64,000 nt of DNA from Myxococcales bacterium (GCA_016794465.1 JAEUKA010000028.1:1-64000), one strand, 5' to 3'. Positions 7,074 to 44,000 are shown, counted from the first letter of the stretch. Program-made: numbers and translations. Notes: generated from the sequence alone by a model not told the origin.

Positions 7074-7090
7074 GAGTATACCTCGATAAT

Positions 7091-26522: not shown

Positions 26523-26528
26523 ATGGTC

Positions 26529-29453
26529 ATGAACGAGCGCGGCAGTCGCAAGATTCCGGTTACGGAGCGACAGTTTCTTTGGGTTCAGGACGACGACAAG
26601 GGAGAGGTGACGCTCCACGTTGGTCCGACGATGGTGTCACCGACCGCTGCCGATCGAGTGGTGATCGACGACGGCGCCGGCAGCTTCCGCGAGGACACCT
26701 CGGGGCGGCCACAGATGATGATCGAGGTCGGCGATCACCAGTACGCGGTGCTGTTCAATCCGCTGCTGGAAAACGACGGTGGCGCCAACGGTCGCTTCCG
26801 CATTGGCCGCAACGAGGCGCGTCCGCTGAAGAACGGCACCCGGGCGATGATTCCCGGTCCCTGTAGCTTCTTTCTGCGACCCGGACAGCGCTGCGAGGTG
26901 CGCGACGCTCACGAGCTGTCGGCGAGTCAGTACTTGGTGGTGAAGGCCTACGGTCCGGTGGATCGCTCGGCGCCGTACTTCGATGTGACGGTGCGCTCGG
27001 CAGCGATCACCCGGGCGACGGCGGAAGCGCTCGACGGGCGTCCGACGCCACTGCCCGACAAAGGCACCGATCAGGATCTCAAGCGCGGGCAGCTGATCGT
27101 TATCCGAGGCATTGATACCCAGTTTTACATTCCGCCCACGGGCGTTGACATTGTGCCGGACACCTCGGTGGACGAGTCGGGCGCAACCGTCAGTGCGACG
27201 ACGGCACAGAAGCTGATGCAGCAGATGCAGGCGCAGCTGAGCAAGCCGTCGCCTTCGACTGTGGCCCCGATGGCGCCACCGCTGGCCAAAAAAGGAAGTC
27301 TGAGCGAAGAAGAGCTGGAGCTGCGGCTCGAGGACGATGAGTCGCTAAGTGACAAGAGTCGTTCGCCGCGTCGAGCGGTCGCACAGTACCAAGCGGAAGC
27401 CGCTGCCCAGATGGTCGATCAGTCGGCACGGACCCGACAGCGAGTCGCACCACCTACGGCGATTCCTGCCCCGGCCGCTCCGGCTCGGGCTTCTGCTGCG
27501 CCACCACCGCCCCCTCCGCTGTCCGCTGCTTCGTCCGGTGCAGTTGCTGCGGCTCCTTCAGTCGGTGCGGCGACCGTATCGGTAGACGATGTCCTGTCTT
27601 CGGATGCTCTCCGCAAAGCGATCGAAAAAGAGGCACGGCAAGCGCGTCTTATTCGCAGCGCGGTGGTGCTAGGGGAAAAGGAATACTGCGTTCTCATCGA
27701 TCCAGACGGCAAGCGCGAGATCAAAGTGGGACCGGCGCGGGTCTTCCCAGGACCGTACGACACCTTCATGATCAAGGGCTCGCGCAATCGGGTCTACGAT
27801 GCGTATGAGCTGCTTCCCCAGCGCGCGCTGTGGCTGCGGGTGATCTCGCAGAGCAGTCGCGATGACATGGCCAAGAAGATGCCGCGCGGAGTCGAGCTGG
27901 ACAAAGAGCTGTACTATCCCGGCGACGAGCTGCTGCTGTCCGGAGTGTCCGGTTTCTTCTTTCCGTTCAACGAGATCGAGGTCCTGTCTCCGCATACCGG
28001 CGAGGCAGTGGTTGGGAATAACCACTCCAACGTCTTTATCGAAGCGATCGGAATCGATCAAAAGAGCGGCATCTATGTTCGCGATCTGACCACCGGAGAG
28101 GTGCGGCTGATTCGCGGCAAGCAGTCGTACTTGGTTGATCCTCGCAAAGAGATTCACATCACACGCGGTGTGAATCCGCATGACTGGAACCTGTGGATCG
28201 CCGCCAGTGAGCTGCACAAGCGGACCGATCGACATGTCACCACACCGTGGGCGATCTCGATCATTGTGCCGCACAACACAGCGGTATTGGCGACGAGCGC
28301 GGCGGGTCAGCGGGTGATTGAAGGACCATGCGTCACGCTGCTTGAGTATGAAGAGAACTTGGTGCCGCTGCGCCTGTCTACCGATACTCCCAAAGATGAC
28401 AGCAGTCCGCTGGTGACCTGCTTTCTGCGAACGATTGGGAATCGTGTCTCGGATGTGATTGAGATCGAGTCCGCTGACTTCGTCCGCATCAGCCTGCGCA
28501 TCACCGTGAGTGTGACCTTCCTACGTGATCACCGGGACAAGTGGTTTAACGCCGAGAACTACATTCAGGTGCTCTGTGATCACCTCCGTTCGATCGTTAG
28601 GAGTCGGACTCGGACGCTGTCTCTGTCGTCGCTGTGGCCGCAGCTTGCAGCCGTTGTCCGCGATACCATCTTGGGTCCACGCAGTGATGCCGATGGCAGT
28701 CGCAAGGGACGCTTCTTTGCGGAAAACGGAATGCTGGTGCATGAGGTCGAAGTCCTTGATGCAACGATCGAAGACGAGCAGATTGCCGAGATGATGCGGA
28801 GCGTCCAGAGAGAGTCGGTGACGCTAACGATTGGGGATCGGCAAGCGCAAGACAAGCTTCAATCGACCAAGCTCCGCGCCGAGCTAGAGCTAAAGACGCA
28901 CGAGCTACAAGCGCAGGTGCGAGAGCATGAGTCGAAGCTGCGCGAGCTGGAGCGCAAGCTGGTTCATGAGACGCGTCTTCTGGAGCTGCGGGATCGGGAA
29001 GCGATGGCGCGGGAACAGTCGCAGCTGGTAGCAGAGCGGGAAGCGAGCGAGCTGCGTCTGCGCTTGGATCGGGAGTCGGCGGCGCAGAGTGCAGCTCGGG
29101 AAGCGCTGCTCAAGGATGCGGCGACCAAAGCGCAAGCGGCGCAGTCTCTGCATGAGGAGGAGTTTGGACACCTGAGCCGCATCAAGGGACTGGACATGGC
29201 GCTGATCGATGCGCAGGCGCGTGCAGTGGTGGCAGAGCGAACTGCCGTTCAGCCGCAGCTTGTCGAAGCACTGACCGCGCTGGGTGACAAGACGCTGCTT
29301 GGTGAGGTGGCGCAGAACATGAACTTGGTGTCTCTGTTCCGGGGCAAAGAAGCGGGAGAGATTCTCAAGGAAGTGGTAGGTGGGACGCGCTTTGTGCCCG
29401 CCCTTCAGGAAGCGCTGACCGCCAAGCCGAAGTCGCCCGAGCCGAAGAAGTAG
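26529..29453 (+). CDS. Major vault protein (MVP) homolog
   Basis: About 975 aa, no signal peptide. N-terminal repeated ~55-aa beta modules with landmarks matching eukaryotic MVP (SFFLRPGQ vs SFFLQPGE; YCVLIDPDGKREIKVGP vs YCVILDPVGPDGKNQLG). Shoulder-like segment VIEIESADFVRISLRITVSVTF (cf. [21 protein letters not shown]). A ~150-aa coiled coil (LQSTKLRAELELKTHELQAQVREHESKLRELERKL...) in the cap-helix position, then a basic tail. A Pro/Ala-rich low-complexity insert sits inside the repeat region. Confidence 0.85.
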   Translation: MNERGSRKIPVTERQFLWVQDDDKGEVTLHVGPTMVSPTAADRVVIDDGAGSFREDTSGRPQMMIEVGDHQYAVLFNPLLENDGGANGRFRIGRNEARPLKNGTRAMIPGPCSFFLRPGQRCEVRDAHELSASQYLVVKAYGPVDRSAPYFDVTVRSAAITRATAEALDGRPTPLPDKGTDQDLKRGQLIVIRGIDTQFYIPPTGVDIVPDTSVDESGATVSATTAQKLMQQMQAQLSKPSPSTVAPMAPPLAKKGSLSEEELELRLEDDESLSDKSRSPRRAVAQYQAEAAAQMVDQSARTRQRVAPPTAIPAPAAPARASAAPPPPPPLSAASSGAVAAAPSVGAATVSVDDVLSSDALRKAIEKEARQARLIRSAVVLGEKEYCVLIDPDGKREIKVGPARVFPGPYDTFMIKGSRNRVYDAYELLPQRALWLRVISQSSRDDMAKKMPRGVELDKELYYPGDELLLSGVSGFFFPFNEIEVLSPHTGEAVVGNNHSNVFIEAIGIDQKSGIYVRDLTTGEVRLIRGKQSYLVDPRKEIHITRGVNPHDWNLWIAASELHKRTDRHVTTPWAISIIVPHNTAVLATSAAGQRVIEGPCVTLLEYEENLVPLRLSTDTPKDDSSPLVTCFLRTIGNRVSDVIEIESADFVRISLRITVSVTFLRDHRDKWFNAENYIQVLCDHLRSIVRSRTRTLSLSSLWPQLAAVVRDTILGPRSDADGSRKGRFFAENGMLVHEVEVLDATIEDEQIAEMMRSVQRESVTLTIGDRQAQDKLQSTKLRAELELKTHELQAQVREHESKLRELERKLVHETRLLELRDREAMAREQSQLVAEREASELRLRLDRESAAQSAAREALLKDAATKAQAAQSLHEEEFGHLSRIKGLDMALIDAQARAVVAERTAVQPQLVEALTALGDKTLLGEVAQNMNLVSLFRGKEAGEILKEVVGGTRFVPALQEALTAKPKSPEPKK

Positions 29454-29531: not shown

Positions 29532-30098
29532 CTACAGCTTGCCGCAGTAGAAGAAGTTTCCGGGTGCCTCGGGATCGTCGCTCATCATAAACTCCAGCGA
29601 GAGTGCAATCAGCTCGTCGAGCGTGAGCCGGCCATCTTGGTTGCGATCGAGGCGCGCAAACGTCGCCGCTGCATCCGCTGTAGAGCCCATCGCTTGCAGC
29701 AGCCGCGCATACTCATGAACGGTCAGAGACTGACTGCCATCTTGATCAATCAGCTCGATCACATCACGACAGACCTGAGTCAGCCAAGGGGACGCGACAT
29801 GCGCCGCGCGATGCACCAGAATCTGGCGCTCGAAGTAGCGCAAAAACTCGGGCAGAGACACCGAGCCGTCCCGATCTTTGTCCGCTCCGGAAGCCAAGCG
29901 ATGAAACAGATCGACTCTGCTCTCTAACAAACGGCGCGCGCGACGATCCTCTGCCGACAGCCCGAACGCCTGCTGAATCCGTCGTGCTTGCTCGCGAAAG
30001 TCGGACTCCGTAAGAGCCCCGCTTCCATCGACATCGTACATCGCAAAGAGCGTCGAAAACTTGCGTACCTGCAGCGGCGTGAGTGTCGTCTGTTCCAT
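29532..30098 (-). CDS. Four-EF-hand calcium-binding protein (calmodulin/calerythrin-like)
   Basis: Four canonical 12-residue loops: DVDGSGALTESDF, DKDRDGSVSLPEF, DQDGSQSLTVHEY, DRNQDGRLTLDEL. Start at internal Met MEQTTL (30098). Confidence 0.85.
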   Translation of the reverse strand: MEQTTLTPLQVRKFSTLFAMYDVDGSGALTESDFREQARRIQQAFGLSAEDRRARRLLESRVDLFHRLASGADKDRDGSVSLPEFLRYFERQILVHRAAHVASPWLTQVCRDVIELIDQDGSQSLTVHEYARLLQAMGSTADAAATFARLDRNQDGRLTLDELIALSLEFMMSDDPEAPGNFFYCGKL

Positions 30099-30338
30099 CG
30101 CGCATGTCCCCCAAAGAGTCCGGGTCATTTTCGCTGCGATTCCTATTTCTGTCTATACCGACCGCGCGAACGTCACCCCGACCTACCTAGGTGTACACTT
30201 CCGTTCCTCTGAGTTCAGCCGCATGGCACGACGAACGGACTGTCGCGGCACCCTTGTGATAATGATCTTCCTGTAGGACTCTTTTTTGAGCGGGCGACCC
30301 AAAAACGCGCTAGGAGTACGCCCAACATCGGGAGTAAC

Positions 30339-32792
30339 ATGCCTCAAAAGAGACAAATCACCATGCGGCTGACCAGTAGGATTCTCTCTCTGTGTGCCTT
30401 GCTCGTCGCCACTTGTGAAGGCCCTGTGGGGCCGAGCGGTCCGACGGGTCCGGAAGGAATGCCCAGCACTCCCGACACCATGTCGTGCGATCCCAGCCAG
30501 ACCGGACTCCGCGCCGAGCTATCGATCACTCCGCCAGCGCACGGCTCCTTCTATCAAGTCGGAGAAGCGCCGCTGCTTACCATCCGGCTCCTGAGTGGCT
30601 GTCAAAAAGTACTGGCTCCTGCCGAGCTGGGAACAGCGGCTCTGTATCTGGTAGGACCGCGTGGCGCCCTCACCACCCGCAGTGCCAACACGCTCCTCAA
30701 TGCGGTGACTGATCGCGCCGCCAAAGATCGCCAGCACCACTACATCAACCTGATCAGTCCGGCCTATGCAAACCCAAGTCAAGGCGGACTCAAGACGCTG
30801 CCAGATGGATCGCTACAGTATCAGCTGGCACCGATTACCAAGGAAGCGGCGGGCACCTACACCGCAGCGGTACGCGTCAAGTCGAAGGATGAAGTCGAGC
30901 AGATCTTCCCGATGCTTGATCTACAGATTGGCACGGCCACCGTCGAGAAATATGCCTCTGGAGATCCGAACGCATCCAGCTGTGCTGACTGTCACAAGGG
31001 ACCTTCCAGCGGCAAGATGTACATGCACCACATTGAGCCGGGCAGCTCTGCGGTGGGAAACTGGGCGCTCGATCTGTATCCGATCGCGACCTGCAAGCTG
31101 TGCCACAACCAAGACGGCTACAGCGCCAACTCAACGCTGCGCAAGGTTCACGCCGTTCATCGAGGAAAAAACCAAGCCAACCCCGGAGCGGCCCATCCAG
31201 AGTACGGAGTCCCGGCCGATGGCTCGCTGGCGCTGTACACCAACGTCGGCTTCCCCGTGATGCCGGATCAAGAGAAGGACTGCGGCAAGTGTCACCGCGA
31301 TGATCGCAACCTCAAGCTGCCTTCTCGTCAGGCCTGCGGTGCGTGTCATGATGCGCTGTTCTTTGATACCGGCACGCTGTCGCCACCCCGTACTTTCACG
31401 GGAACCTGCGCGGTGGATGCAGACTGTGCATCACGTGGCAGTCTCGCGAAGTGTAACACCGCACTCAGTGTCTGTCAGACGGCGACACATCCCAAACAGA
31501 GCGACGATGCGCAGTGCAGTACCTGCCACTCTGCCGACTCTTCCGGAATCTCTCCGATTCCCGATCGTCATGAAGTGGTCACGCGGACAAGAGTCCGCAA
31601 GATCAAGCTCAGTGAAGTCTCTGTAAGTGGCGGATCGGGACCGCTGGCGGCGATGATGGTGGGTGACACGCTCAAGCTCAGCTTCAAGCTGCTCGACGGA
31701 AAAGGTGCGCCGATCACCGATCTGAAGACCAATGCCACACTGTCCGGAACGCTGCTGATAGGGGGGCCGACCGATGATCGGCAGATGATCTTCCCATCGA
31801 TCAACATCAAGACCGGAACCGGACTTGTGTTTGATGCCGCGACCGCTGTCTATACCTATACGCACAGTGCGACGTGGCCGGCGAGTGCGCTGGCTCCGCT
31901 CAACAGTACGGGTCTTTTGCCACGAGCGAATCCGCCCGGAACGTACACCGCGTGGCTCTATGTCGTCGAGACTTCCACCTATAATGGCGTGCAGGTGCGT
32001 GATGTTGGAACCACGCTGGTGGACTTCCGGGTCGGTGGTTCCCAAGCGATTCGTCCGCGTCATGTGATCACCCGCGACTCCTGCAACTCCTGTCATGTGA
32101 TCGCGCAAGCCCACGGCGGAAGTCGCCGCGATGCCGAAGGCTGTTCGATCTGTCACACGGCTGGCGCAGTCGATCGCACCGTCGGTGCCAGAGGCGTTGC
32201 CTGTACCACCAGCAGTCAGTGTCCCGGCGCAGCAGCGGGCTGGGAGAGCTGTCAGGACACCAACGCAGATGCCAAGCTGGATACCTGCATCATCACGGTC
32301 GATCCGACTCCGGGACAGACCATCAAGTTCTCTGCGATGATTCACTCGACCCACTACGCCCGACGGCTGGGTGGCTATGCTGCGCGGAGCAGTCTGATCA
32401 AGCCGGGAGCGCTCACGTACATCGGCAACTCGAATCGGGTGTTTGATCTTTCAGAGATCCTGTTTCCCCAAGATGTCCGCAGCTGCGAAAAGTGTCACGG
32501 TGACTCTGGAGCAAGCTGCAGCGCCAACAGTCCCTGCGGAATCGGCCAGAGCTGTGTGTCTGGGAAGTGCAAGAACATCGCCTTTACAGCTGCTGACACC
32601 GCCGCTTGCCTGGGCTGTCACGACACCGCAGCAGCAGCCGGTCATGCCGCCCTAAATACCTGGACCGATCCAATGGGAAAGCCGGTGGAAACCTGCGCAG
32701 TCTGTCATGGTCCCACTGCTGAGTTTGCGGTCAGCAGAGTCCACAACATCAGCAGTCCCTACCAGCCTCCCTATTCACGCGAGAAGGAGTAA
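30339..32792 (+). CDS. Decaheme c-type cytochrome lipoprotein (outer-surface MtrC/OmcA-like candidate)
   Basis: GGGAG RBS. Lipoprotein signal (LSLCALLVATC). Ten CxxCH motifs (CADCH, CKLCH, CGKCH, CGACH, CSTCH, CNSCH, CSICH, CEKCH, CLGCH, CAVCH). 817 aa. Confidence 0.85.
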   Translation: MPQKRQITMRLTSRILSLCALLVATCEGPVGPSGPTGPEGMPSTPDTMSCDPSQTGLRAELSITPPAHGSFYQVGEAPLLTIRLLSGCQKVLAPAELGTAALYLVGPRGALTTRSANTLLNAVTDRAAKDRQHHYINLISPAYANPSQGGLKTLPDGSLQYQLAPITKEAAGTYTAAVRVKSKDEVEQIFPMLDLQIGTATVEKYASGDPNASSCADCHKGPSSGKMYMHHIEPGSSAVGNWALDLYPIATCKLCHNQDGYSANSTLRKVHAVHRGKNQANPGAAHPEYGVPADGSLALYTNVGFPVMPDQEKDCGKCHRDDRNLKLPSRQACGACHDALFFDTGTLSPPRTFTGTCAVDADCASRGSLAKCNTALSVCQTATHPKQSDDAQCSTCHSADSSGISPIPDRHEVVTRTRVRKIKLSEVSVSGGSGPLAAMMVGDTLKLSFKLLDGKGAPITDLKTNATLSGTLLIGGPTDDRQMIFPSINIKTGTGLVFDAATAVYTYTHSATWPASALAPLNSTGLLPRANPPGTYTAWLYVVETSTYNGVQVRDVGTTLVDFRVGGSQAIRPRHVITRDSCNSCHVIAQAHGGSRRDAEGCSICHTAGAVDRTVGARGVACTTSSQCPGAAAGWESCQDTNADAKLDTCIITVDPTPGQTIKFSAMIHSTHYARRLGGYAARSSLIKPGALTYIGNSNRVFDLSEILFPQDVRSCEKCHGDSGASCSANSPCGIGQSCVSGKCKNIAFTAADTAACLGCHDTAAAAGHAALNTWTDPMGKPVETCAVCHGPTAEFAVSRVHNISSPYQPPYSREKE

Positions 32793-32797
32793 CGGCG

Positions 32798-34462
32798 ATG
32801 CACTTGCGTGGTGGCGTTCTGACCAGCGCAAGAGTCCGTTTGTCGTCGCTGTGTGCGTCACTGCCGGTGCTCTTGATGATGCTGTTGGGAGTCGGCTGTG
32901 GAGATCCGCGCCCAACTCTGGGAACCCGCAGTCAGTGCATCAGCTGGAAGCAGGAGATTGCGCCCCTCCTTTCCGAAAACTGCGGTTCCTGTCATAGCGG
33001 CGGGAGTCCTGCCGGTGGACTCGATACCTCTTCGTACTTGGCCGTCTTGGGAGGCGGAGAGGTGCGGGTTCGTGCCGTCGCTGGTGATCCAGACTCGGTG
33101 CTGCTTCGGGTACTGAAGAAGGAGTCTGCAACGACCGCACATCAGGGCATCGCGGACTCTGTTCGCGAGCAGCTTCAGCACTGGGTGGTTGACTGCAAGG
33201 TGTCGTATCTGCGCTCTGTTCAGCATCAAGGGGGAGTCCTCAATCCCGATGATCCGCAGGGACAGTTTCACGGCACTCTGCTGCGTGCGACGGGCTACCA
33301 GCTGTCGGCCTGCACTGGCTGTCATGGTGAGGATCTGTCCGGAGGCAAGGCCAAGTCATCCTGTCTTACTTGTCATGCGCAGGGAGTCACGACCTGTGCG
33401 ACCTGTCACGCCCGACAGTCACCTGTTCACAGAGCCCACACGCAAGGCACGACCCAAGGCAAGTCCTTTGCTTGTGCAGCGTGTCATCCGCAGCCGCGCT
33501 TCTGGAATGATCCGGGTCACGTTTCCGAGGCTGATGGCTCTGCACGAACCACCAAGGTCCGGGTTGCGCTGGGCAGTCTGGCCAACCTCACTCCTTCCTC
33601 TTCCATGCGCTCTTCTGCGGCCACTTTTGACTCCGAAACCAAGCAGTGCACAAGTGTCTACTGTCATGGTGGGGTGTTCCCAGATCGCGCCGCAACCAAC
33701 ACCTCTCCGCTGTGGACAGGAGTCGCGAAAGAAGCGGAGTGCGGAACCTGTCATGGCCTGCCACCCAGCTCTCATGATGCGAGCCAGACCCGCTGCAGTC
33801 TGTGTCACAACCGCACCGCTACTGCCGATCAAAAGCTGCTGTCAGGAGGCCGGCATCTAAGCGGGATCAGCGAGATCGGCGACGGCAGCGGCACCTGTGC
33901 GGCTTGTCATGGTTACACCGGAAGTACTCCGTTTCAGGATCTCGCAGCACAGACCGACCAGACTCTGCTCGGAGTCGGCGCCCATGCCGCACACGTGAAT
34001 GCCAGCCATCGCTTGAGCGCTCCGCTTGCATGCAGTGAGTGTCATGGCAGTGTCACCCCGATTCCCAATACGTCTCGCCACGCCGTAACCGGACAAGGAG
34101 TCCGGATCTTTCCTTCTGGCAGCGGCGCCAAGCTGAGCGAATTGGAAGGAGCAAAGCCCACCTGGGATCGCCCAAGTGCGCGCTGCTCCACCAACTACTG
34201 TCACGGCGGTGGCAGCAAGCTGCTGACCGATCTGAGTCCGGGGGTGAATCGCACTCCGGTGTGGACGGCGAGCAGTCAGGCCTCTTGCGGATCGTGTCAC
34301 GGCATTCCGCCCAAGGATGGGAATCACACCGCTACCATGCGTCTTGTCGACTGCGCCACTTGTCATGCCAAGACGATCGATGCCAGCGGAACGATTCTGT
34401 TTGTCGGTCCGGTCGGCGCGCAAAAGACCACCCACTTGAACGGAGTCGCCGATGGCAACTAG
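32798..34462 (+). CDS. Multiheme c-type cytochrome (11 CxxCH + 2 CX4CH)
   Basis: Signal peptide; CGSCH, CTGCH, CLTCH, CATCH, CAACH, CGTCH, CSLCH, CAACH, CSECH, CGSCH, CATCH plus CTSVYCHGG and CSTNYCHGG. Starts 5 bp after the upstream cytochrome stop. Confidence 0.8.
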   Translation: MHLRGGVLTSARVRLSSLCASLPVLLMMLLGVGCGDPRPTLGTRSQCISWKQEIAPLLSENCGSCHSGGSPAGGLDTSSYLAVLGGGEVRVRAVAGDPDSVLLRVLKKESATTAHQGIADSVREQLQHWVVDCKVSYLRSVQHQGGVLNPDDPQGQFHGTLLRATGYQLSACTGCHGEDLSGGKAKSSCLTCHAQGVTTCATCHARQSPVHRAHTQGTTQGKSFACAACHPQPRFWNDPGHVSEADGSARTTKVRVALGSLANLTPSSSMRSSAATFDSETKQCTSVYCHGGVFPDRAATNTSPLWTGVAKEAECGTCHGLPPSSHDASQTRCSLCHNRTATADQKLLSGGRHLSGISEIGDGSGTCAACHGYTGSTPFQDLAAQTDQTLLGVGAHAAHVNASHRLSAPLACSECHGSVTPIPNTSRHAVTGQGVRIFPSGSGAKLSELEGAKPTWDRPSARCSTNYCHGGGSKLLTDLSPGVNRTPVWTASSQASCGSCHGIPPKDGNHTATMRLVDCATCHAKTIDASGTILFVGPVGAQKTTHLNGVADGN

Positions 34463-35738
34463 GCCGCTACAGCGCCGCTTGCGGAGTCTGTGGAAGGGTC
34501 TGTGCTGTGGCCTGGGAAGCGGACTCCTGCTCTGGCAGGGAGTCGCGCAGGCGGACTCTGTAGAGTTCAATGTCTCGACGCTGCTGGCCGGTCGTGCTGA
34601 TCCCCGCGATGGCGAAGTTCACACTGTGGTTCCGGTCTATCAGTCCCTGGGCGCACAGGCCACGATTCTGCGTCCGTACTTTGACAGCATTCACATTGTG
34701 ATGTCGGGCTGGGGCTCGGTACAGCTGGACATCGGTCGCAGCGAGTACTGGTCGGGAGACATCGATCTTGGCTACATCGACGGCAGCTTTGCCAAAAAGC
34801 GCTTGCAGGTGCGCGTCGGTCGCCAGTTTGTGATGGGCGGAGCCGCGCGCAGTGCCCAGCTCGATGGCGCAGTGACCACGCTACAGCTGTACAAAGGACT
34901 GGGAATCACGGCTTATGGTGGCATTCCGGTCACGCCGCGCTTTTCCGCGAGCCGGGGAGATGCGATGTTCGGCGGACGGATGTTCTATCGGCACTCCTTT
35001 GACACTGAAGTCGGTCTGTCGTTCAACCAAGTGATGGGCGAAGGACGAGCCGCGCGACAAGACCTGGCCGTCGACGCGCGCTATGTTCCACATCCCCAGA
35101 TCGCGCTGACCGGATATACGCTGTATGCCATTCCGGAAGCGCGGGTGGCGGAAGCAGACTTCTCTGTGACCTGGCTTCCCAACCTGAAGCTACAGTTTGG
35201 AGCAGACTATCGGCGCACTGCACCGGATCTGTTTCTGCCGCTCAACTCGATCTTCTCGGTGTTCTCGCAAGAGACGCGAGATGAGGTCGGTGGTACGGTG
35301 TATCTGCGACCGATCTCGCGGCTGCGCATCTATGGTGATCTGCGCGCGGTGGTGAACCTGGAGGGAGCCGGAGCGCGGGGCGGAGTCAAGGCAACGGTAG
35401 CACTGGGTCCGCGTGATCACACGACGCTGAGCGCGGAGCTGCGACTCCTCAAGCTACCAAACAACGGCTATGTCCAGGCGCGTCTGTATAGTACGCATCG
35501 ACTGCATCCAGCGTGGTTTGTGACGCTGGGTGCCAACAGTTACTTTCTCGATCAACCGATCAATGGACAGGGGTATTCCTTCACAGGAACCGGCACCGTG
35601 GCGGCAGAGCTGGGCCGGGGCTTCCGTCTGGTCGCCACTGGCTTTGCGGATGTGACTCCGTTTGTGGAGCGCCGCGTTGAGTTTGTGGTCAAGCTCGCCT
35701 ATCACGCCACGCAGACCTTCCGCGAGGTATCGAAATGA
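34452..35738 (+). CDS. Outer-membrane beta-barrel (porin-like) protein of the cytochrome operon
   Basis: Signal peptide (LLLWQGVAQA), alternating hydrophobic beta-strand pattern throughout, no Cys/heme motifs. 11-bp overlap upstream and 4-bp ATGA overlap downstream, so tightly coupled. Confidence 0.6.
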   Translation: MATRPLQRRLRSLWKGLCCGLGSGLLLWQGVAQADSVEFNVSTLLAGRADPRDGEVHTVVPVYQSLGAQATILRPYFDSIHIVMSGWGSVQLDIGRSEYWSGDIDLGYIDGSFAKKRLQVRVGRQFVMGGAARSAQLDGAVTTLQLYKGLGITAYGGIPVTPRFSASRGDAMFGGRMFYRHSFDTEVGLSFNQVMGEGRAARQDLAVDARYVPHPQIALTGYTLYAIPEARVAEADFSVTWLPNLKLQFGADYRRTAPDLFLPLNSIFSVFSQETRDEVGGTVYLRPISRLRIYGDLRAVVNLEGAGARGGVKATVALGPRDHTTLSAELRLLKLPNNGYVQARLYSTHRLHPAWFVTLGANSYFLDQPINGQGYSFTGTGTVAAELGRGFRLVATGFADVTPFVERRVEFVVKLAYHATQTFREVSK

Positions 35739-36796
35739 GGGCCTTTCGCCTGCGCTGGCTGCTCTGTGCCAGCGTCCTACTTCTCGTCGCCTGCGCGACC
35801 TATTGGAGCAAGATCGGTGGGGGCGACTCGATCAAGGCTTCGCACAGTGTCCATGCGCGCGCCAAGCTCGACTGCTTGGTCTGTCACGAGCCGATCTATG
35901 ACGCGCAGAGTCTTACCGGAGACTTCCTTCCCAAAGAACAGAAGTGTCTGGAGTGCCATGAAGACAACAAGAAGAAGGGGGAGTGTGGCTACTGTCATAC
36001 TGATCCTACTCGTCCGCTGACCTACCGAAGGGAGCCCTCTGTCCTAACGCTGTCTCATGCCAAGCACATTGAGCGGACCAAAGAAGACTGCACGCGGTGT
36101 CACAAGACGCTGTCTGATCGTGGCCAGGCGGCAGTAGCGCCGACCATGGACTCGTGTCTGGGCTGTCATCCGCACCAGCAAGAGTTCGATCAGGGGTCGT
36201 GCGGAGCGTGTCACAAGGATCTCAAGCGCTATCCCCAGAAACCCCTAACAAGGTTCTCGCACCGAGGGAACTTTGTCTTGGGACACGCCCGCGCCGCTCG
36301 CTCGACTCCTGAGAGCTGTGCGACCTGTCATGAGCAGTCCTCCTGCGCAGACTGTCATGCCAAGACCGTGCTCGGTCCGATCGAGCTGAAGTTCCCAGAG
36401 CGGGCGGACAGCGACCTGATTCATCGCGGCGACTTCCTCGGTCGACACAGCATGGAGTCGCGCGCCGATCCCGCTTCCTGCTTGCGCTGTCACGGCACCA
36501 GCTTCTGTGAGCGCTGCCACAGCCAACAGGGAGTGAGTGGTAGGAGTGACAACCCGCGCAACCCACATCCGGCGGGCTTTAACACGCCAAGTCATCCGCA
36601 GTTTCACGGACTTGCGGCCCGGCGCAACATCTCAAGCTGTGCCAGCTGTCATGATCAGGGTCCGCGCTCCAACTGTGTCAGCTGTCACAAGGTCGGTGGC
36701 CTCGGGGGAAGCCCACATCCTCCTGAATGGACAGAGCGTCACGATCGTCAAGAGATCCTACGAAATGGCATGTGTCGCTACTGCCATACGCTGTGA
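35735..36796 (+). CDS. Periplasmic 13-heme c-type cytochrome
   Basis: 13 CxxCH motifs in 353 aa (CLVCH, CLECH, CGYCH, CTRCH, CLGCH, CGACH, CATCH, CADCH, CLRCH, CERCH, CASCH, CVSCH, CRYCH); lipoprotein-like signal (LLLVAC). Confidence 0.85.
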   Translation: MRAFRLRWLLCASVLLLVACATYWSKIGGGDSIKASHSVHARAKLDCLVCHEPIYDAQSLTGDFLPKEQKCLECHEDNKKKGECGYCHTDPTRPLTYRREPSVLTLSHAKHIERTKEDCTRCHKTLSDRGQAAVAPTMDSCLGCHPHQQEFDQGSCGACHKDLKRYPQKPLTRFSHRGNFVLGHARAARSTPESCATCHEQSSCADCHAKTVLGPIELKFPERADSDLIHRGDFLGRHSMESRADPASCLRCHGTSFCERCHSQQGVSGRSDNPRNPHPAGFNTPSHPQFHGLAARRNISSCASCHDQGPRSNCVSCHKVGGLGGSPHPPEWTERHDRQEILRNGMCRYCHTL

Positions 36797-36861
36797 AAAG
36801 CCAAGCGAGTGTCACGCACTCAGCCACAGAGATTCCTACTAACAAGGAGAGAGAAAATCCC

Positions 36862-37224
36862 ATGCGCACCGTACTTGTCCTCGTGTCTCTGTTTTCGTTT
36901 GCTCTTACGACTTCGGCCAGCGCGGATGAGAATGATCCCCGGGTGAAGCGGGCCTGGAAAGCAAAGTGCGCGTCCTGTCATGGAGAGGATGGCAAAGGAG
37001 ACACCGAGCAAGCCAAGAAAAAGTTCGGCGGTCCGCTGCGTGATCTTACTGATGCCAAAGTGCAAGAGCGCTTCAAAGATCCCGAGCTGCGCGACATGAT
37101 CACCAAAGGCAAGACCGAGACGAAGGACGGCAAGGAAGTCAAGATGCCGGCCACTCCCGAGATCGCCGGAGAGCAGCTTGATGGCCTGGTGCAGTTTGTC
37201 CGCAAGCTCGCCGTCAAGAAGTAG
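36862..37224 (+). CDS. Monoheme class I cytochrome c
   Basis: Start at internal ATG with AAGGAGAGAG RBS; signal peptide; single CASCH and downstream Met ligand (KMPATPEI). Confidence 0.75.
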   Translation: MRTVLVLVSLFSFALTTSASADENDPRVKRAWKAKCASCHGEDGKGDTEQAKKKFGGPLRDLTDAKVQERFKDPELRDMITKGKTETKDGKEVKMPATPEIAGEQLDGLVQFVRKLAVKK

Positions 37225-37263
37225 CGCGTCCCAGAGCGCGCGAATCGGACGCAGGGTGAAGCC

Positions 37264-37866
37264 ATGTTAGTGGTGCTGTTTGGGCTGTCGATGCTGCTCT
37301 GTGTGGTGCTGTTTTTGCGGCCTACCCAGCCGAGCAGAGTGCTCGCGTTTGCCAGTCTGTTTGTGCTGCCAGTCACAGTCAGCTACATGGGAGTGGAGAC
37401 TCACATTGAGAACTCCAAACAGACCAGCTTCTGTACTTCCTGTCATGTCATGAGCAAGCACGGACGGAGCCTGCTCGTCGACGACACCACCATCTTGGCG
37501 GCTTCCCACTATCAAGGGGGAAGGATTCCGCGTGACCGCGCCTGCTTTACCTGTCACACCACCTACACGATGTACGGAGACATGCAGGCCAAGCTACGCG
37601 GGGTCAAGCATGTCCTCGTCAACTACTTTGGCAAGGTTCCAAGTCAGCCAAAGCTGTACGAGCCGTACCACAATCGGGAGTGTCTGCACTGCCATGAGGG
37701 GGCGCGCCGCTATCTGAAGGGAGAGACGCACACCGCCGAGCCAGGGCGGATGGAAAAGATGCGACAGAATCAGCTGTCCTGCATCACCAAGGACTGTCAC
37801 GACACCGTACATGTTGTAAGTGAAGTCGACAGCTTGCCACTGTGGAAGCCGGAGCCATCCAAATGA
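37264..37866 (+). CDS. NapC/NirT/NrfH-family membrane-anchored tetraheme quinol dehydrogenase
   Basis: N-terminal TM helix then CTSCH, CFTCH, CLHCH and a fourth CX4CH (CITKDCH); about 200 aa, typical of the family. Confidence 0.8.
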   Translation: MLVVLFGLSMLLCVVLFLRPTQPSRVLAFASLFVLPVTVSYMGVETHIENSKQTSFCTSCHVMSKHGRSLLVDDTTILAASHYQGGRIPRDRACFTCHTTYTMYGDMQAKLRGVKHVLVNYFGKVPSQPKLYEPYHNRECLHCHEGARRYLKGETHTAEPGRMEKMRQNQLSCITKDCHDTVHVVSEVDSLPLWKPEPSK

Positions 37867-38057
37867 CCAAGGACAGTCAACGCATCCGGATCGCCTCTGC
37901 CCTGGTGTTTGTTGGTCTGGGAGTCGAAGGATTCACCCTGCGCTGGTCGCATCCGACTGCCTTCTTTGTCTTTGCAGGAATCGGCGGTCTGCTGCTCCTG
38001 CTCGGGGTGCTGGTCTTTCTTTCTACGCTGCTTGGCGGAGCAAACCGGCTATCATGA
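37842..38057 (+). CDS. Small two-TM membrane protein (tentative)
   Basis: 71-aa ORF overlapping the end of the NapC-like gene; two hydrophobic helices (ASALVFVGLGV.., FFVFAGIGGLLLLLGVLVFL). No homology recognised. Confidence 0.35.
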   Translation: MEAGAIQMTKDSQRIRIASALVFVGLGVEGFTLRWSHPTAFFVFAGIGGLLLLLGVLVFLSTLLGGANRLS

Positions 38058-38060
38058 GCC

Positions 38061-39362
38061 ATGAATCCCGATCGACAGCGCGCGCTGGAGGAGCAGCTCG
38101 CCCTGGAGATAAGCCGCACAGAGAAGCTCCGCGCCACGATCATGGCGCTCGCGTTTACGAGCGGATTTGTGATCGCGCTGTTGATCTTTCAAGTGTGGCT
38201 CAAGCGGCTGCCATCAGGCTTCGGTGCGGTGTTCCTGCGCGTCAGTCCGATTGTGATGACTGGCGTCGGACTCATGACCATTTATGGCTGGCTGGCTCGG
38301 CTGTACATCTCTCGCTACGTCGCTCGTCAGAAGCGCGTTCCGCTCGGCTTCGTCCTTATCAACGCAGGCTTTGAGGTCAGCGCGGTTTCCTTCTTCATCC
38401 TGCTGATTGCACGCGCTTCCTCGCCGGCTTTTGCCATCAGCGCGCCACCGATCCTCATCTACTCCCTCCTCATCATGATGTCGGTCCTGCGGCTCGACTT
38501 CTGGCTGTCTCTGTTTGTCGCGGTGATGGTGGCGATTCAGTACGTTCTGTTAGGAAGACTCCTGCTACCAGCAGTTCCCATTGAGGGAGAGCTTGGCTTG
38601 TTGATGTCCCCGATTCCGCTCTACCTGCGAGCAGGAATCTTCATGATCACTGGACTGGCTGCGGGGGTCATCGGCAATGATCTGCGGCACAGACTCATCC
38701 GCACCACAGAGATCGTTGTGGAGAAAGATCGAGCCGTCGCGATGTTTGGTCAGCATGTCTCTCCGCAAGTGGCAGAGCAACTCCTCCGCGAACATACCGG
38801 GGTCCTGACCGAGACGCGGCATGTCTGCATTCTCTTCCTGGATATCCGCAACTTCACACGCTTTGCAGAGAGCCGGACTCCCAGCGAAGTGGTGGACTAT
38901 CTGAACGCTCTGTTCGGGCCGCTGGTCGAGATCGTGGACCGGCATGGCGGCATCATCAACAAGTTCCTTGGCGACGGCTTTCTGGCCATCTTTGGCGCCC
39001 CCCTGGCCAATGACCAGCACTGTCTGTCTGCGGTTCGTGCCGCGCTCGCCATGCTTCAAAAAGTGGAGGAGTTGGGAGCCGCGCAGCTCATTCCCCCCAC
39101 TCGCTTGGGAATCGGTCTGCATGCGGGGATGGTGGTCACGGGCAGTGTCGGCTCGCACCTGCGACGCGAATACACAGTCATCGGAGATGCCGTCAATCTG
39201 GCGGCCCGGATCGAGCAGCTGACCAAGGTTCACAGTGCCCAGCTCCTAGCGAGTGACTCGGTGATCGCCCACCTTCCCGTAGAAGAGATAGCAACTGAGA
39301 AGCTCGCGCTGGTGCAGGTCAAGGGCCGAGAGGCGCCCGTGCAGATCTTCAAGCTCGCATAG
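38061..39362 (+). CDS. Membrane-bound class III adenylate/guanylate cyclase
   Basis: Six-TM N-terminal region and C-terminal cyclase homology domain (ILFLDIRNFT, KFLGDGFLAIFGAP, YTVIGDAVNLAARIE). Confidence 0.85.
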   Translation: MNPDRQRALEEQLALEISRTEKLRATIMALAFTSGFVIALLIFQVWLKRLPSGFGAVFLRVSPIVMTGVGLMTIYGWLARLYISRYVARQKRVPLGFVLINAGFEVSAVSFFILLIARASSPAFAISAPPILIYSLLIMMSVLRLDFWLSLFVAVMVAIQYVLLGRLLLPAVPIEGELGLLMSPIPLYLRAGIFMITGLAAGVIGNDLRHRLIRTTEIVVEKDRAVAMFGQHVSPQVAEQLLREHTGVLTETRHVCILFLDIRNFTRFAESRTPSEVVDYLNALFGPLVEIVDRHGGIINKFLGDGFLAIFGAPLANDQHCLSAVRAALAMLQKVEELGAAQLIPPTRLGIGLHAGMVVTGSVGSHLRREYTVIGDAVNLAARIEQLTKVHSAQLLASDSVIAHLPVEEIATEKLALVQVKGREAPVQIFKLA

Positions 39363-39523: not shown

Positions 39524-41011
39524 GTGCCATCGAATGTGAGCCTTGCCTCCGCACCTGGACGCGCTCACTCTGCGCAGTCGCTGCCCCGTGCTCTGTTTCG
39601 TACCGCACTCCTTTGCGCGGCTGGCGCAGGGCTGCTCAGCAGTCAGTACGTGGCCGCGCGCGAGCTGGGCTCGACCTTCTTTGTCACCGAGCTATCAATC
39701 ATCGCAGCGACGGTGGTCACCCTCATCGGCCCCAGCCTCAGCTACGCACTCGGGGATCGACTGCGCGGATCGGATCGCTTGCTCCAGTGGTGGGCACTGG
39801 CCGCACTCCTTATTCAGCTGGCACTCCCTTTCGGGATTCGCGCGCTCGTTGGATCGCTCGGGGCATCGCATCCACTGTGGGCTGCTGCCATCACCGCTTC
39901 GGCGGTAGCGCTGCTGTGCGGATATTACGCTTTTATTCTGCCTCTTTATGCCGAGCCTGCCTCTCTGCCTCGGCTGTATGCGGCGGAGCTTGGCGGCGCT
40001 CTGCTGACCTTGCTGCTGCTCGCAGTGGCGCCTTCGTATCGGCTGTTCTTGCCTTTCTTTCTGCTGCTGCCGGTGCTGATTGCCTGGCTGACTCAGCGAC
40101 GGCTGGTGGCGCTCTGTACGCTGCTCTTGGCGGGCGCAGTATCCACCCAGACAGAGTCCCTCGATCGCTGGGCCAGTACCCACTACTACCGACATTATCA
40201 TCAGCTGGACGCGCCCCGTGTTATCGAGAGTGTTTACTCTCCCTATCAGCGCATTGATGTGGTGGAAGCGGCTGCCGACACCGCGCTGTACTTGGACGGA
40301 GTGCCATTCTATCGCTCCGGTGATCTCGATTCCTTCAATGTCTTTCTGGCCGAGCTACCGGGCTCTCTCTTGCCGAAAAGGGGTCGGGCACTGGTGGTAG
40401 GGAGTGGCAGTTTCTCGTCGGCGGCACGGCTTCATCGACTGGGTTACCGCGTCACCGTCATCGAGCTGGATGCTCTGGTGGCCAAGGTCGGATTTCATCG
40501 CTTTGCGCACCTGCACAAGCTTTCGCCAGAGATGATCACCCTGCACATCGACGACGCACGCCGGGTGCTTGCGACTCACTCCGATTCCTATGATCTGATT
40601 GTCCTTGATGTACCTGCACCGTATCGGATTGCGACGGCGCTCCTGCACTCACCGGAGTTCTATCGCCAGGTGGCGGCACGCCTGACCCCCACAGGAGTCG
40701 TTGCGCTCAGTCTCTGTGATGACCTGGCGGGATCGCTTGGGAAGCGCATCGCAGCGTCGGCAGCCCAGGTCTTTGCAGAGATCATGGTGGTGGAGAGCAG
40801 TGCCGTAGGACTCGGGGTTCTGTATGGTGGCGCGCAGCTGCCGTTTTCGATCCAAGCCGCTGCAGAACAGCTCCGTGCCCGCGATCCGCAAGGCGGACAG
40901 GTGACTCCTGATCAGCTGGTACGCAGCCAGGTTCTCGACGCTGATCCGCTTGGTCCCCAGGATCTACTTGGCGTCCTGTTGCTGTCACGTCAAGTGGTGC
41001 AGTTGCCATGA
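39524..41011 (+). CDS. Membrane-bound spermidine-synthase-like (PABS-fold) protein
   Basis: N-terminal multi-TM region then Rossmann/PABS-like module (ALVVGSGSFSSAARLHRLGYRVTVIELDALV...YDLIVLDVPAP). 4-bp ATGA overlap with the next gene. Confidence 0.7.
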   Translation: MPSNVSLASAPGRAHSAQSLPRALFRTALLCAAGAGLLSSQYVAARELGSTFFVTELSIIAATVVTLIGPSLSYALGDRLRGSDRLLQWWALAALLIQLALPFGIRALVGSLGASHPLWAAAITASAVALLCGYYAFILPLYAEPASLPRLYAAELGGALLTLLLLAVAPSYRLFLPFFLLLPVLIAWLTQRRLVALCTLLLAGAVSTQTESLDRWASTHYYRHYHQLDAPRVIESVYSPYQRIDVVEAAADTALYLDGVPFYRSGDLDSFNVFLAELPGSLLPKRGRALVVGSGSFSSAARLHRLGYRVTVIELDALVAKVGFHRFAHLHKLSPEMITLHIDDARRVLATHSDSYDLIVLDVPAPYRIATALLHSPEFYRQVAARLTPTGVVALSLCDDLAGSLGKRIAASAAQVFAEIMVVESSAVGLGVLYGGAQLPFSIQAAAEQLRARDPQGGQVTPDQLVRSQVLDADPLGPQDLLGVLLLSRQVVQLP

Positions 41012-44000
41012 CCCAGCTGCCAGAGAGCCTGCGGAAGCTCGAAGCATTTTTGACTGGGTCTGCGCTGGCCCACCTGCAAGTCGCACTCGGCTTTGCGGCG
41101 ATGCGCGGCCTGGGAGCCAGTGCCTCTGCATGGTTTGCGGTGCTGTTTTGCTGGCTGCTCGGTGGGCTCTTCGGAACCCTCTTGGCCAGGCGTGGCTGGC
41201 TCACTTCCCGTCGAGAATCTACCCTCGCTTTATTGGCCCTGCTCTTCCTTACCCTGACAGAAGCGGCGACTCTGCTTCAGCCGTTCTCCGCGCTTCCTCG
41301 CTTGGCCATCGTGCTGGCGGCGGTGTTGTCCGGAGGCTATGGCGGCGCATTCCTGGCCAGTCGTGGTACCCAAGGAGCCTCTATTGCCGCGCTGTTTTTT
41401 CATGAAAACAACGGCTTTCTGTGTGGCTTTGTCGTTGCCAGCGGAGTCTTGCTCCTCCACGCTCCGCTGCTGCTGCCACTGACCGCTTTGGGAGTGCTTG
41501 CAGCCCGCGCCGCTGCGCCGAACCGGCAGTCTGGTCCGCTCCTGTTTGCGGTAATATTAGGCATATCATCTACTTCCTTTCAGCTGCTCTTTGCGTGGGG
41601 GGGCGAGCCGGCCTGGGATGCCCTCATGACTGCCTCGGTGCTCACTCATCCCGACGCTGTGGATCTGCAAGGCTGGCTGTTCTTTGCGCATCCGCTGGTG
41701 ATTCCTCTGACCGCGCCTTTTCGCTTGTTCACAGGTGATCCGTTGCAAGCGGTGACGCTGCGTGAAGCAGTCTGTCATGGTGGCGTGATCACCCTGCTCT
41801 ACTTGGCTGGACGAGCGCTCGCTGGCCCGCACAAGCACGGCCTGCTGATCGCGCTGCTGACAGCGCTGCAAGTCTTCCTTTCCGTCGGAAAATGGCAGCT
41901 TGCCCTGGCTGGAGAGGAAAAGGAAATCACCGTTCTGGCTAGCAGTGCCTTTCTGTTTTTCTATCTCGATCATCGCGGCCTGTGGAGCCTTCACATCGTG
42001 TCGTTTTCGGCCCTGGCACCGCGCTGGCGCCGCTTCCTACTGGGTGCGCTGCTTGCGCTGGCGATGTCGATTCACATCCAAAATGGACTGCTGGTGGTGT
42101 GGCTCCTGTTTGATCTGCTGCTGACACTTCACAAGCCCAATCTCCGTCGACAAGCTGCCATTGATGTGGTGGTAGTTTTCATCGTTTCAGCAGCGCTTGC
42201 CGGACCGTTTTTTGTGTGGCTGGCCAGCGCGGGAGGAGGTGCAAGAACCCCGCGCGAGCTGCTCCAGTTCTATTTGGAATATCACCTGTCTGGTGAGTTT
42301 TTTTCGATTCCGGCTTCCCTGTCCGAGCGCCTGTCTGAGTGCTATCGCGGGCTGCGCTTGTGGCTGCTCGGTGATCTCCCGCTTGGGAGTCCTCGGCTAG
42401 AGCCTGCGCTGGCGACTCTTGGCCTGCTCTTGCTGTCGCTGTCGGCCCTTCGGCAGGCACCGCTGGTGGTGTCGCGGCTGCTGGCTTGGCCACTGCTGAT
42501 CTTCCTCCACTTTTTCTTCTATCAGCCATGGCATCCCGAAGCATGGAGTCCCGCTGCGGCGTGCGGCTCTCTGGTGATCTCGCTGGGACTGCTGGGAAGA
42601 GGTCGCCTGCTTCCGCTGCGGTGTGGACTGGCGGTGCTGTGGATTGCCGTACTGGCATTCCTACTCGGTCGCGATCAGCAGCAAGGAAGACGCCTATCTG
42701 AAGAGGTTCAAGCGTTTGTGGAGGCAGATTCTCCGTCGAGAACTCCGCTGCGCGAGCTTACGCGCTGGCTGGATGTCCACCTTGAACCAGAGGCCGAGAT
42801 CCTGGTCACAGATCGACTCCTGGTGTCGTATTTTCAGCTCTATACCAAGCGAACTCCCCTGGTTCGCGAGTATCTGGGAGTTCCCAAGGAAGCGCTGCGC
42901 GGCACCTATCACCTCACCTCCCTGAGCCTGCGCTTTTACACGCCACAGCGTACTCTGGCCGAGATCGATGCGGCCATCTTGGCGGGTCGTCCAGTGTATC
43001 TTCTCAGCACGGAGTCCGGGTCTTCTCCGACGGTCGAGCTGCCTTGGGGCGGACTCCTTTTGTCACGGCTTACTACCCCTTTGGGAGTCCGGGCAGAGAC
43101 TCCTTTGACACCACCTTCGCGGACTCTGGTTCACGCTACAGATCTGCTCTCAAACGATCTGACACTGACAGCAGTAACTCCGATCAATCCGTCGGTGTAT
43201 CGGCTCGTTTTGCGAAACGGAGAGCGGACGTTTTCGGCCAAGTGGAAGCCGCTGGGTGTGGAAGGGAGTGAGGTGCAGGAGGGCTTTGATGGCAACAACG
43301 CACCGCGCTGCGAGCTGGCGGCACGGCGCATCGATCAGTTCTTGTCCGACGGTGATCCGCGCAGAGAGCTGGTTCCTGAAGTGGTGCTGCGTTCGTTTCA
43401 TCGCCAGGTTCCCTGCGACCGTCCCTGTCAGGGAATCCCTCAGCTCATCGGTGCAGGAGTCCCGGCTACGTTTGCTGCGATCAACGATCATCTGGTGCTG
43501 GGTGCCCTGAGTCTGTGGATCGAGGATGCCGAGCGTCCGCAGCGCTTTTCGGGTCAATTGTGGAGTCCGCAGCGCTTTGCCCAAGACCCGGCGTACCGAC
43601 GGAACTTTGCCGATTTGATGACGTTTCTCTATCTGATTGCACATGGTGACGCAAACTACGCGGACAACTTCCTGTATTCCGAAGGTCCACCACCACGCGC
43701 CTACAGCATCGACAACGGACGCTCTCTGGATGGCATTCCTTTTTACACCACAGAGGGCGATCCAGACTGGCAGCCTCTGGCGCAGCTCACACCGCAGTCG
43801 CTCGTCGCTCCGGCACTGTCTAGGCAGACTCTCCATCGAGTCGCTGCGCTCCAAGACGCACGACTCCTTCCATCACTGTATCTGGTTGCGGCGATCGATC
43901 TGAGCTCTGGCCGCACCGTCAGCGAACCGGACTCTGTCCCAAGCCTGCGCAAGTATGTCGGACGACCGCTGTCAAACATTCCGCAGCTGCAGAAGGTCAG

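Follow-up and report, generated by a model that had tools for sequence, protein, structure and literature searches.

A conserved porin-cytochrome operon with 41 haem-binding motifs in an uncultured myxobacterium of the class Polyangia

A 64,000-nucleotide stretch of Myxococcales bacterium DNA (GCA_016794465.1, JAEUKA010000028.1:1-64000), referred to here as the window and numbered from its first letter, contains a cluster of cytochrome and membrane protein genes, designated A to G, for which a role in extracellular electron transfer (EET) had been predicted. The original prediction described seven tightly packed and partly overlapping genes with about 40 haems, and all seven open reading frames (ORFs) were indeed found at that place on the plus strand, with a total of 41 haem-binding motifs (Table 1). 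Gene calls that were made independently on identical metagenome contigs match the seven ORFs, while gene A has an alternative start at position 30339. As calculated from the coordinates, A and B are 5 nucleotides (nt) apart, B and C overlap by 11 nt and C and D by 4 nt, D and E are separated by 65 nt and E and F by 39 nt, F and G overlap by 4 nt, and the next gene, H, starts 3 nt after G. Chance clustering of the haem motifs was excluded, since 38 CXXCH motifs occur within the 2529 amino acids (aa) of the cluster and none in the other 16,818 aa of the called ORFs of the window; a six-frame count of the same motif peaked solely in the bins spanning 30-38 kb. No strong terminator was found within the cluster, and a promoter scan returned no convincing plus-strand promoter 5' of A, myxobacterial promoters being poorly modelled. 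Overall, the cluster is a real and well-conserved porin-cytochrome operon.

Table 1. Coordinates of the cluster genes, neighbouring features of the window, and selected features of related loci (designated L)
Feature	Sequence	Position	Strand	Size and haem motifs	Description
Gene A	Window	30363-32792	+	809 aa; 10 CXXCH	Predicted surface decahaem lipoprotein, MtrC/OmcA family
Gene B	Window	32798-34462	+	554 aa; 11 CXXCH + 2 CX4CH (13 motifs)	Multihaem lipoprotein
Gene C	Window	34452-35738	+	428 aa	Outer-membrane beta-barrel
Gene D	Window	35735-36796	+	353 aa; 13 CXXCH	Predicted lipoprotein cytochrome
Gene E	Window	36862-37224	+	120 aa; 1 CXXCH	Class I monohaem cytochrome c
Gene F	Window	37264-37866	+	200 aa; 3 CXXCH + 1 CX4CH	NapC/NirT family
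Gene G	Window	37863-38057	+	64 aa	Two hydrophobic helices
Gene H	Window	38061-39362	+		Class III adenylate/guanylate cyclase, membrane-anchored; PF00211, 94.7 bits
EF-hand gene	Window	29532-30128	-		Four EF-hand Ca-binding motifs; divergent from the cluster
Vault protein homologue	Window	26439-29453	+	1004 aa	Homologue of eukaryotic major vault protein
Spermine-synthase-like gene and partner	Window	39524-44148	+	495 aa and 1046 aa	Gene pair with 4-nt overlap
Low-GC segment	Window	4001-8000			Carbonic anhydrase and two further genes
G homologue	L007	13338-13616			Two-helix protein
G homologue	L008	13315-13593			Two-helix protein
G homologue	L011	4950-5228			Two-helix protein
G homologue	L024	12808-13083			Two-helix protein
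Rieske/cytochrome b module	L010	2495-5781	-		Rieske protein, cytochrome b and octahaem cytochrome
CbcL-like gene	L048	11433-13505	+		Multihaem-cytochrome b561 fusion
Class I cytochromes and Rieske protein	L049	12518-18885			Two class I cytochromes c, plus Rieske protein
Expanded B-type gene	L039	5497-9822		~1350 aa; 31 CXXCH + 7 CX4CH	B-type lipoprotein
Tandem barrel-cytochrome pairs	L045	20-6106		12 haems in each cytochrome	Two tandem barrel + 12-haem pairs

The cluster was then compared with 39 substantial genome loci that carry the same family of barrel as gene C. All 39 come from metagenome-assembled genomes (MAGs) whose labels either name Myxococcota or are compatible with them. These labels include Polyangia, Myxococcales, Archangium sp. 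and Anaeromyxobacteraceae, along with several that read only delta- or other Proteobacteria. Many of these relatives originate from fen, palsa, groundwater and soil, and sludge is also represented. The closest loci, with barrels 82-83% identical to C, belong to a Polyangia MAG of membrane-bioreactor sludge and to 'Myxococcales' MAGs; the closest of all, L007, is by its name a membrane-bioreactor activated-sludge MAG. Identical proteins were also found on a 116-kb metagenome contig of the Joint Genome Institute (JGI) and in many sequencing runs. The host is an uncultured myxobacterium of the class Polyangia. In every locus with enough sequence (34 of 34), a 13-haem gene lies directly 3' of the barrel gene, and the other components occur near the barrel at differing frequencies: B in 31 of the 39 loci, E in 21, an A-like gene with MtrC domains in 18, and F in four. 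Several fen MAGs hold B, C and D alone, and these three constitute the canonical three-part porin-cytochrome module.

The barrel protein C begins with a Sec signal peptide (VAQA/D) that harbors its only two cysteines; thus, its original description as Cys-free applies to the mature part and not to the whole chain. The AlphaFold2 (AF2) model of C (pLDDT 87.3, pTM 0.75) is all-beta from residue 35 to 427 and predicts a plugless barrel of about 22 strands. Fold comparisons, performed here and below with Foldseek against PDB libraries, aligned C over 320-333 residues with the 22-strand barrels of TonB-dependent receptors and with MtrB. By sequence, C matched no Pfam or NCBIfam model, the barrel profile likewise found nothing among PDB sequences, and no porin, usher or MtrB family was hit in any of the three collections. 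The family is nonetheless large, as its profile retrieved 1023 cluster representatives (50% identity) at E <= 0.001, including 305 at E <= 1e-30; in the cluster look-up, the distant relatives were only nameless or 'hypothetical', and a tblastn search of plasmid records with the barrel produced no match.

The partner of the barrel, D, was originally described as a 13-haem periplasmic cytochrome. The 13 CXXCH motifs were all accounted for, but a soluble periplasmic protein is not what the sequence predicts: in 44 homologues the lipobox cysteine (Cys20), the 13 CXXCH motifs and 13 further histidines are invariant, and it is because of the invariant lipobox cysteine that D is predicted to be a lipoprotein. 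The best match of its profile in the PDB was 3ouq (E 1.7e-13), which we regard as part of GSU1996, a c7-polymer cytochrome of Geobacter, followed by ActA of alternative complex III and by c7 cytochromes of the PpcA type, whereas MtrA (6r2q_A) was reached only at E 0.006. Judged from these profile matches, D is built of c7-like units. The family has more than 880 members in 90% clusters. With 27 aa per haem, D is also denser than MtrA, which uses about 33 (PMC5566968). Presumably, D is a wire threaded into C from the periplasmic side.

Of the two cytochromes presumed or predicted to reside at the surface, A was originally taken to be a decahaem lipoprotein, and the ten CXXCH motifs and a lipobox (LVATC) were both found. 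Behind the lipobox come a collagen-like Gly-Pro-X tether and then four domains, which in the AF2 model (61 homologues as input; pLDDT 90.2, pTM 0.85) are laid out as beta, haem, beta and haem, with five haems each in domains II and IV. The Pfam model for domains II/IV of MtrC/MtrF, PF22113, scored 101.4 bits on A against a cutoff of 30, while TIGR03507, which describes the OmcA/MtrC decahaem subfamily, scored 165.3 bits (E 2e-48), below its cutoff of 209.3. When the model was compared with the PDB, the top 14 matches were all MtrC, OmcA or UndA of Shewanella (E 3e-19 to 6e-15), covering the full length at a template modelling (TM) score of about 0.5, and the next matches were immunoglobulin (Ig)-like fragments only. 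By these profile scores and the predicted fold, A is a divergent relative of the MtrC/OmcA fold that falls outside the curated TIGR03507 subfamily. The ten CXXCH motifs and ten further (distal) histidines are invariant in the 61 homologues, the lipobox and the Gly-Pro-X tether are retained in eight loci, and many of the homologues carry an annotation by the Pfam Collagen model. Domain III (residues 413-560) has no cysteine at all, and the haem domains bear three 4-Cys inserts. An A homologue with 48% identity was also encountered in Anaeromyxobacter oryzae, where it is solitary; this protein could not be used to tie the barrel family to a cultured organism, as there is no barrel gene beside it.

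Gene B is a multihaem cytochrome as predicted, although the estimate of about 12 haems fell short of the 13 motifs that it contains. It is recognized by TIGR01904 in two copies (77 bits against a cutoff of 27) and by PF09698 (41 bits), and thus carries CxxxxCH/CxxCH domains of the Geobacter type; a search of the PDB with B gave no match. Among 28 full-length homologues, most have 13 motifs, with a range of 11 to 13 and one expanded member with 38, and wherever the start is readable the N-terminus is lipobox-like, with a cysteine after a hydrophobic stretch. B is presumed to sit on the cell surface. The expanded member, encoded at locus L039, looks like the product of an internal amplification of the CxxxxCH/CxxCH unit.

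The remaining three genes of the original description, namely a monohaem cytochrome c, a NapC/NirT quinol dehydrogenase and a small membrane protein, were also substantiated. The lysine-rich E scored above the cutoffs of PF00034 and PF13442, and at least 90% of 24 homologues retain its CxxCH motif and a downstream methionine. Because of this conserved methionine, E is predicted to be His/Met-ligated, and it would be a soluble periplasmic protein; the PDB offered no informative relative for it, the MtoD structure (4xxl) being matched at E 0.3. F has two N-terminal hydrophobic helices and scored 40.8 bits on PF03264 against a cutoff of 24.1. Its first haem motif reads CTSCHVM and thereby conforms to CXXCHXM, the quinol-site motif of NapC/NrfH, the role of which is known from NrfH; its fourth is an unusual SCxxxxCH (CX4CH). 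Both are kept in four homologues, down to 47% identity. Since the equivalog models for NrfH, NapC and TorC all scored far below their cutoffs (for NrfH, TIGR03153, 37.8 bits against 134), F is best described, from its sequence, as an inner-membrane tetrahaem quinol dehydrogenase of the NapC/NirT/NrfH family with its subfamily undefined. G matched no Pfam or NCBIfam model but has a conserved motif, W-x-HPTAF-x-V-[FY]-AG-x-GG, and a homologue follows the NapC-like gene in all four of the related loci that have one (Table 1). G is a probable partner of F, and may be a new subunit of this variant of NapC/NirT.

The original prediction also placed an adenylate cyclase and an EF-hand protein as flanks of the cluster. 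Both genes are present, but the cyclase gene H is probably the eighth gene of the operon and not a mere flank, as its start 3 nt after the stop of G and the retention of its position in the three closest relatives suggest co-transcription and a cyclic AMP link to the conduit, for which H may be a regulatory output or input. This position is kept solely in those relatives (L007, L008 and L011), and the B-C-D core occurs without a cyclase in at least 30 loci.

In contrast to the constancy of the outer-membrane core, the inner-membrane partners are variable. The NapC plus G arrangement of L024 is the same type of module as that of the window; in L010, genes for a Rieske protein, a cytochrome b and an octahaem cytochrome adjoin the cluster; the distant relative L048 has a CbcL-like fusion of a multihaem cytochrome and cytochrome b561; and in L049, two class I cytochromes c lie directly 5' of the barrel, together with a Rieske protein. 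The NapC, Rieske/cytochrome b and CbcL-like modules are all of quinone-reactive types, as shown for NapC and deduced from Pfam domains for the other two. Swapping of modules across lineages would be expected if a constant outer module has to be connected with the quinone pool. A separate variation was seen in an Anaeromyxobacteraceae MAG (L045), in which the barrel and cytochrome genes of the two tandem pairs encode proteins with identities of 35% to C and 41% to D, an arrangement that recalls the duplicated ombB-omaB-omcB / ombC-omaC-omcC of Geobacter.

The likeness of the cluster to known EET systems was assessed next, the cluster being known here from its genes and predicted structures. In the porin-cytochrome (Pcc) clusters surveyed by Shi et al. 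2014, the porin gene always lies beside a gene for a periplasm-facing multihaem cytochrome of 5-14 haems, and an outer-membrane cytochrome gene is found in most, although not all, clusters (PMC4245776). C and D, the latter with 13 haems, correspond to the invariable pair, and A and B to the outer-membrane lipoprotein cytochromes, their surface exposure being predicted. By description, the nearest described relatives are the group IV Pcc clusters of Anaeromyxobacter, which belong to the same phylum and combine a porin with a cytochrome of 338-344 aa and 12-14 haems, similar to the pairing of C and D, without outer-membrane cytochrome genes (PMC4245776). An indirect link to them by sequence is provided by the two barrel-cytochrome pairs of the Anaeromyxobacteraceae MAG L045. 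The window cluster differs in the addition of A and B, as well as of E, F and G, and in the lipoprotein nature predicted for D. The original prediction considered such a system unexpected in an organism with otherwise myxobacterial or acidobacterial genes; this view does not hold, because Pcc clusters have been known in Anaeromyxobacter since 2014 (PMC4245776) and Myxococcota MAGs rank first for novel putative clusters of EET cytochromes, with matches to MtrC, ExtABC and CbcL as well (bioRxiv 10.1101/2022.03.26.485925), and the barrel family itself is found in Myxococcota MAGs.

Geobacter sulfurreducens OmbB-OmaB-OmcB/Ext follows the same three-part logic, in which adjacent genes encode an outer lipoprotein cytochrome, a barrel of about 20-22 strands and a multihaem cytochrome that faces the periplasm; B has the Geobacter-type TIGR01904 domain, and the c7-like units of D resemble Geobacter PpcA. 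However, OmaB is soluble with 8 haems whereas D would be lipid-anchored with 13, the window cluster has an extra decahaem cytochrome of the MtrC family, and its inner partner is of the NapC type rather than ImcH or CbcL. With Shewanella MtrCAB-CymA, the cluster shares the four-domain fold of MtrC/OmcA/UndA predicted for A, including its lipid anchor and the 5 + 5 arrangement of haems, the NapC/NirT family to which both CymA and F belong, and the overall wiring, i.e., a quinol dehydrogenase, a sheathed wire and a surface decahaem. A is nonetheless only about 14% identical to Shewanella MtrC, to which it adds the 4-Cys inserts and the tether, and the CX8C disulfide found in domain III of Shewanella MtrC/OmcA is absent. 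An identification of C as MtrB or PioB was rejected, as TIGR03509 was not matched and 428 aa with about 22 strands contrast with some 650-700 aa and 26 strands; so was that of D as MtrA or DmsE, given its 13 haems, c7-polymer character, lack of a family match and marginal MtrA profile score. Sideroxydans MtoAB-MtoD-CymA likewise consists of a porin and multihaem cytochrome, a monohaem class I cytochrome and a NapC/NirT protein, although no MtoA or MtoB family match was found in the window cluster and surface MtrC-like cytochromes are foreign to the known oxidative systems. Lastly, the PCC3 clusters of iron oxidizers (He et al. 2017, PMC5566968) have very haem-rich cytochromes, with a median of 21 haems in the periplasmic and 34 in the extracellular ones, and encode a conserved inner-membrane protein of five helices in which the motif WX3HX13H occurs twice. 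The low number of residues per haem in D suggests a wire, as in PCC3, but membership in PCC3 was rejected: the haems number 13, 13 and 10, the NapC-type F and the two-helix G of 64 aa are its membrane proteins, and no 5-helix protein of the PCC3 type is encoded in the cluster, as checked by composition rather than by motif search.

Taken together, the cluster very probably encodes a trans-outer-membrane electron conduit of the Pcc type. This architecture, already put forward in the original prediction, is supported by the MtrC/OmcA/UndA fold modelled for A, the retained core of lipoprotein cytochrome, barrel and 13-haem cytochrome, and the quinol-site motif of F. In the proposed route, quinol would be oxidized at the inner membrane by F with its small partner G, and the electrons would cross the periplasm by direct contact and/or via E and enter the c7-like wire D, lipid-anchored to the outer membrane. 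Seated in the barrel C, D would carry them through the outer membrane, and surface-located B and the tethered A would hand them over to oxides of Fe(III)/Mn(IV), to humic substances or to comparable acceptors. Our analysis establishes the set of genes with their haem motifs and lipoboxes, the predicted folds of A and C, the families of A, B, E and F and the conserved B-C-D core, which in relatives is combined with interchangeable inner-membrane quinol:cytochrome modules; the seating of D inside C, the locations of the proteins, the substrates and the direction of flow are inferred. On balance, it is probable, if by no great measure, that the conduit links the quinone pool of these Polyangia to extracellular redox material with outward, respiratory flow included.

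Outward flow is itself somewhat favored, because of the MtrC fold of A, the Geobacter-type B, the CbcL-like and NapC partners, the anoxic habitats, and the rise of Adeh_3392, a Pcc cytochrome of Anaeromyxobacter, under Mn(IV) reduction (PMC4245776). Several points weigh against the reading as a whole: the C-terminus of the barrel lacks the usual final aromatic residue, a NapC-type protein was found in just four of the 39 loci, and E sits poorly in line with low-potential bis-His wires if electrons flow outward. His/Met class I cytochromes are usually of high potential and usually feed oxidases, and the cultured Polyangia are aerobes. The same conduit might run inward, drawing on Fe(II), Mn(II) or reduced humics outside the cell or on a cathode-like surface, with electrons passing from A/B to D and E and from there either to a terminal oxidase or, by way of F, to the quinone pool, comparable to Sideroxydans MtoAB-MtoD-CymA. 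We consider this possible but rather unlikely. It is consistent with E, a class I cytochrome with a conserved methionine, being a more constant companion of the barrel than NapC (21 versus 4 of 39 loci), with the two class I cytochromes immediately 5' of the L049 barrel and the Rieske/cytochrome b module beside the L010 cluster, with the activated-sludge origin of L007, and with a resemblance to the Mto layout, in which a monohaem class I cytochrome is combined with a NapC/NirT protein. The context of the Mto pathway has been described (PMC11429942). Against inward flow, the known oxidative systems are devoid of an MtrC-like surface cytochrome (bioRxiv 10.1101/2022.03.26.485925); a tie to metal reduction is common to GSu-type CxxxxCH cytochromes, to CbcL-like modules such as that of L048 and to the homologues in Anaeromyxobacter (PMC4245776); E has no meaningful similarity to MtoD; and the relatives are mostly from anoxic peat and fen. 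A fuller version, in which an inward or two-way conduit serves otherwise aerobic, often predatory Polyangia and the cyclase couples the redox state to cyclic AMP (cAMP), is unlikely, and it is just as doubtful that the tethered A gathers electrons from reduced minerals, humics or other cells and passes them through D and E to an oxidase.

The cyclase also raises the possibility that the proteins serve electron exchange between cells or with the matrix, or redox sensing, in which H would convert the extracellular redox state into a cAMP signal. Its position 3 nt after G, retained in L007, L008 and L011, and the divergently adjacent EF-hand gene, retained in L007 and L008, are consistent with such a role, and Shewanella is known to place anaerobic respiration under cAMP/CRP control. 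Nonetheless, we regard it as quite improbable, given that the cyclase is linked in the closest relatives only and that 41 haems plus a quinol dehydrogenase are a large outlay for a sensor. The possibility of a purely periplasmic reductase chain, acting on nitrite, hydroxylamine, sulfur or a substrate of the dimethyl sulfoxide (DMSO) type, with the barrel as an unrelated neighboring porin or usher, was also considered; for nitrite and hydroxylamine reductases, the original prediction itself had named this alternative as contrary to an extracellular role. Multihaem proteins are indeed common in such reductases too, and F weakly matches the NrfH and NapC models. However, none of the cluster proteins matches the NrfA, hydroxylamine oxidoreductase (HAO), octahaem or molybdopterin catalytic families (for A, B and D, no NrfA, HAO or octahaem match was seen at E <= 0.1), a CXXCK motif is absent, and no family of porins or ushers is matched by the barrel. 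The lipoboxes on A, B and D, the MtrC fold of A, and the gene order of barrel and D, which are adjacent in all 34 loci with enough sequence and overlap at their stop and start codons, argue further against a periplasmic reductase and leave it highly improbable.

Elsewhere in the window, an Rfam scan found nothing along its full length, and no further respiratory genes were noted in the remainder, where the genes encode an efflux pump, TonB-dependent receptors, a Ser/Thr kinase, a PAS/STAS protein and others. Just 5' of the cytochrome cluster, and likewise in L007 and L008, lies the gene for the homologue of eukaryotic major vault protein (MVP), which is recognized by the Pfam models MVP_shoulder (65.9 bits), Vault_3 and Vault_4 and, in a phmmer comparison with the rat and human MVP structures (E 4e-20), aligns through its residues 409-932 with MVP 274-780. 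The EF-hand protein, beside the cluster in these same two loci, gave weak matches to the XopAW and lanmodulin models. On the 3' side, the spermine-synthase-like protein has a long hydrophobic N-terminal half, and the protein encoded by the overlapping gene, whose N-terminal half is very hydrophobic, has no match in Pfam; this gene pair is kept 3' in L007, L008 and L011, and the AT skew over it is strongly negative (-0.17 to -0.28). Near the start of the window, the GC content dips to 0.53-0.56, compared with about 0.60-0.66 elsewhere, over a segment that encodes a beta-carbonic anhydrase, the PAS/STAS protein and a protein of 619 aa that matches no Pfam model.

To our knowledge, the mechanism of EET has been worked out only for MtrCAB of Shewanella and for a few complexes of Geobacter. 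The cluster described here belongs to a large family defined by a barrel and a 13-haem lipoprotein, and its barrel has no Pfam or NCBIfam model; a profile of this barrel would improve marker-gene pipelines such as FeGenie-type searches. Components that were earlier found in separate systems are combined here, namely a decahaem with the MtrC fold, a CxxxxCH cytochrome of the Geobacter type, a wire of c7-polymer character and a NapC-type quinol dehydrogenase. If functional, the conduit would offer a compact 428-aa sheath with a 13-haem wire for comparative and synthetic studies, and it would mean that uncultured myxobacteria of peat, groundwater and sludge contribute to the redox cycling of iron, manganese and humic substances. 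Should the flow prove to be inward, A would be the first member of the MtrC family to act in the oxidative uptake of electrons, and the operon would provide a lithotrophic or electrotrophic supplement to the energy supply of myxobacteria.

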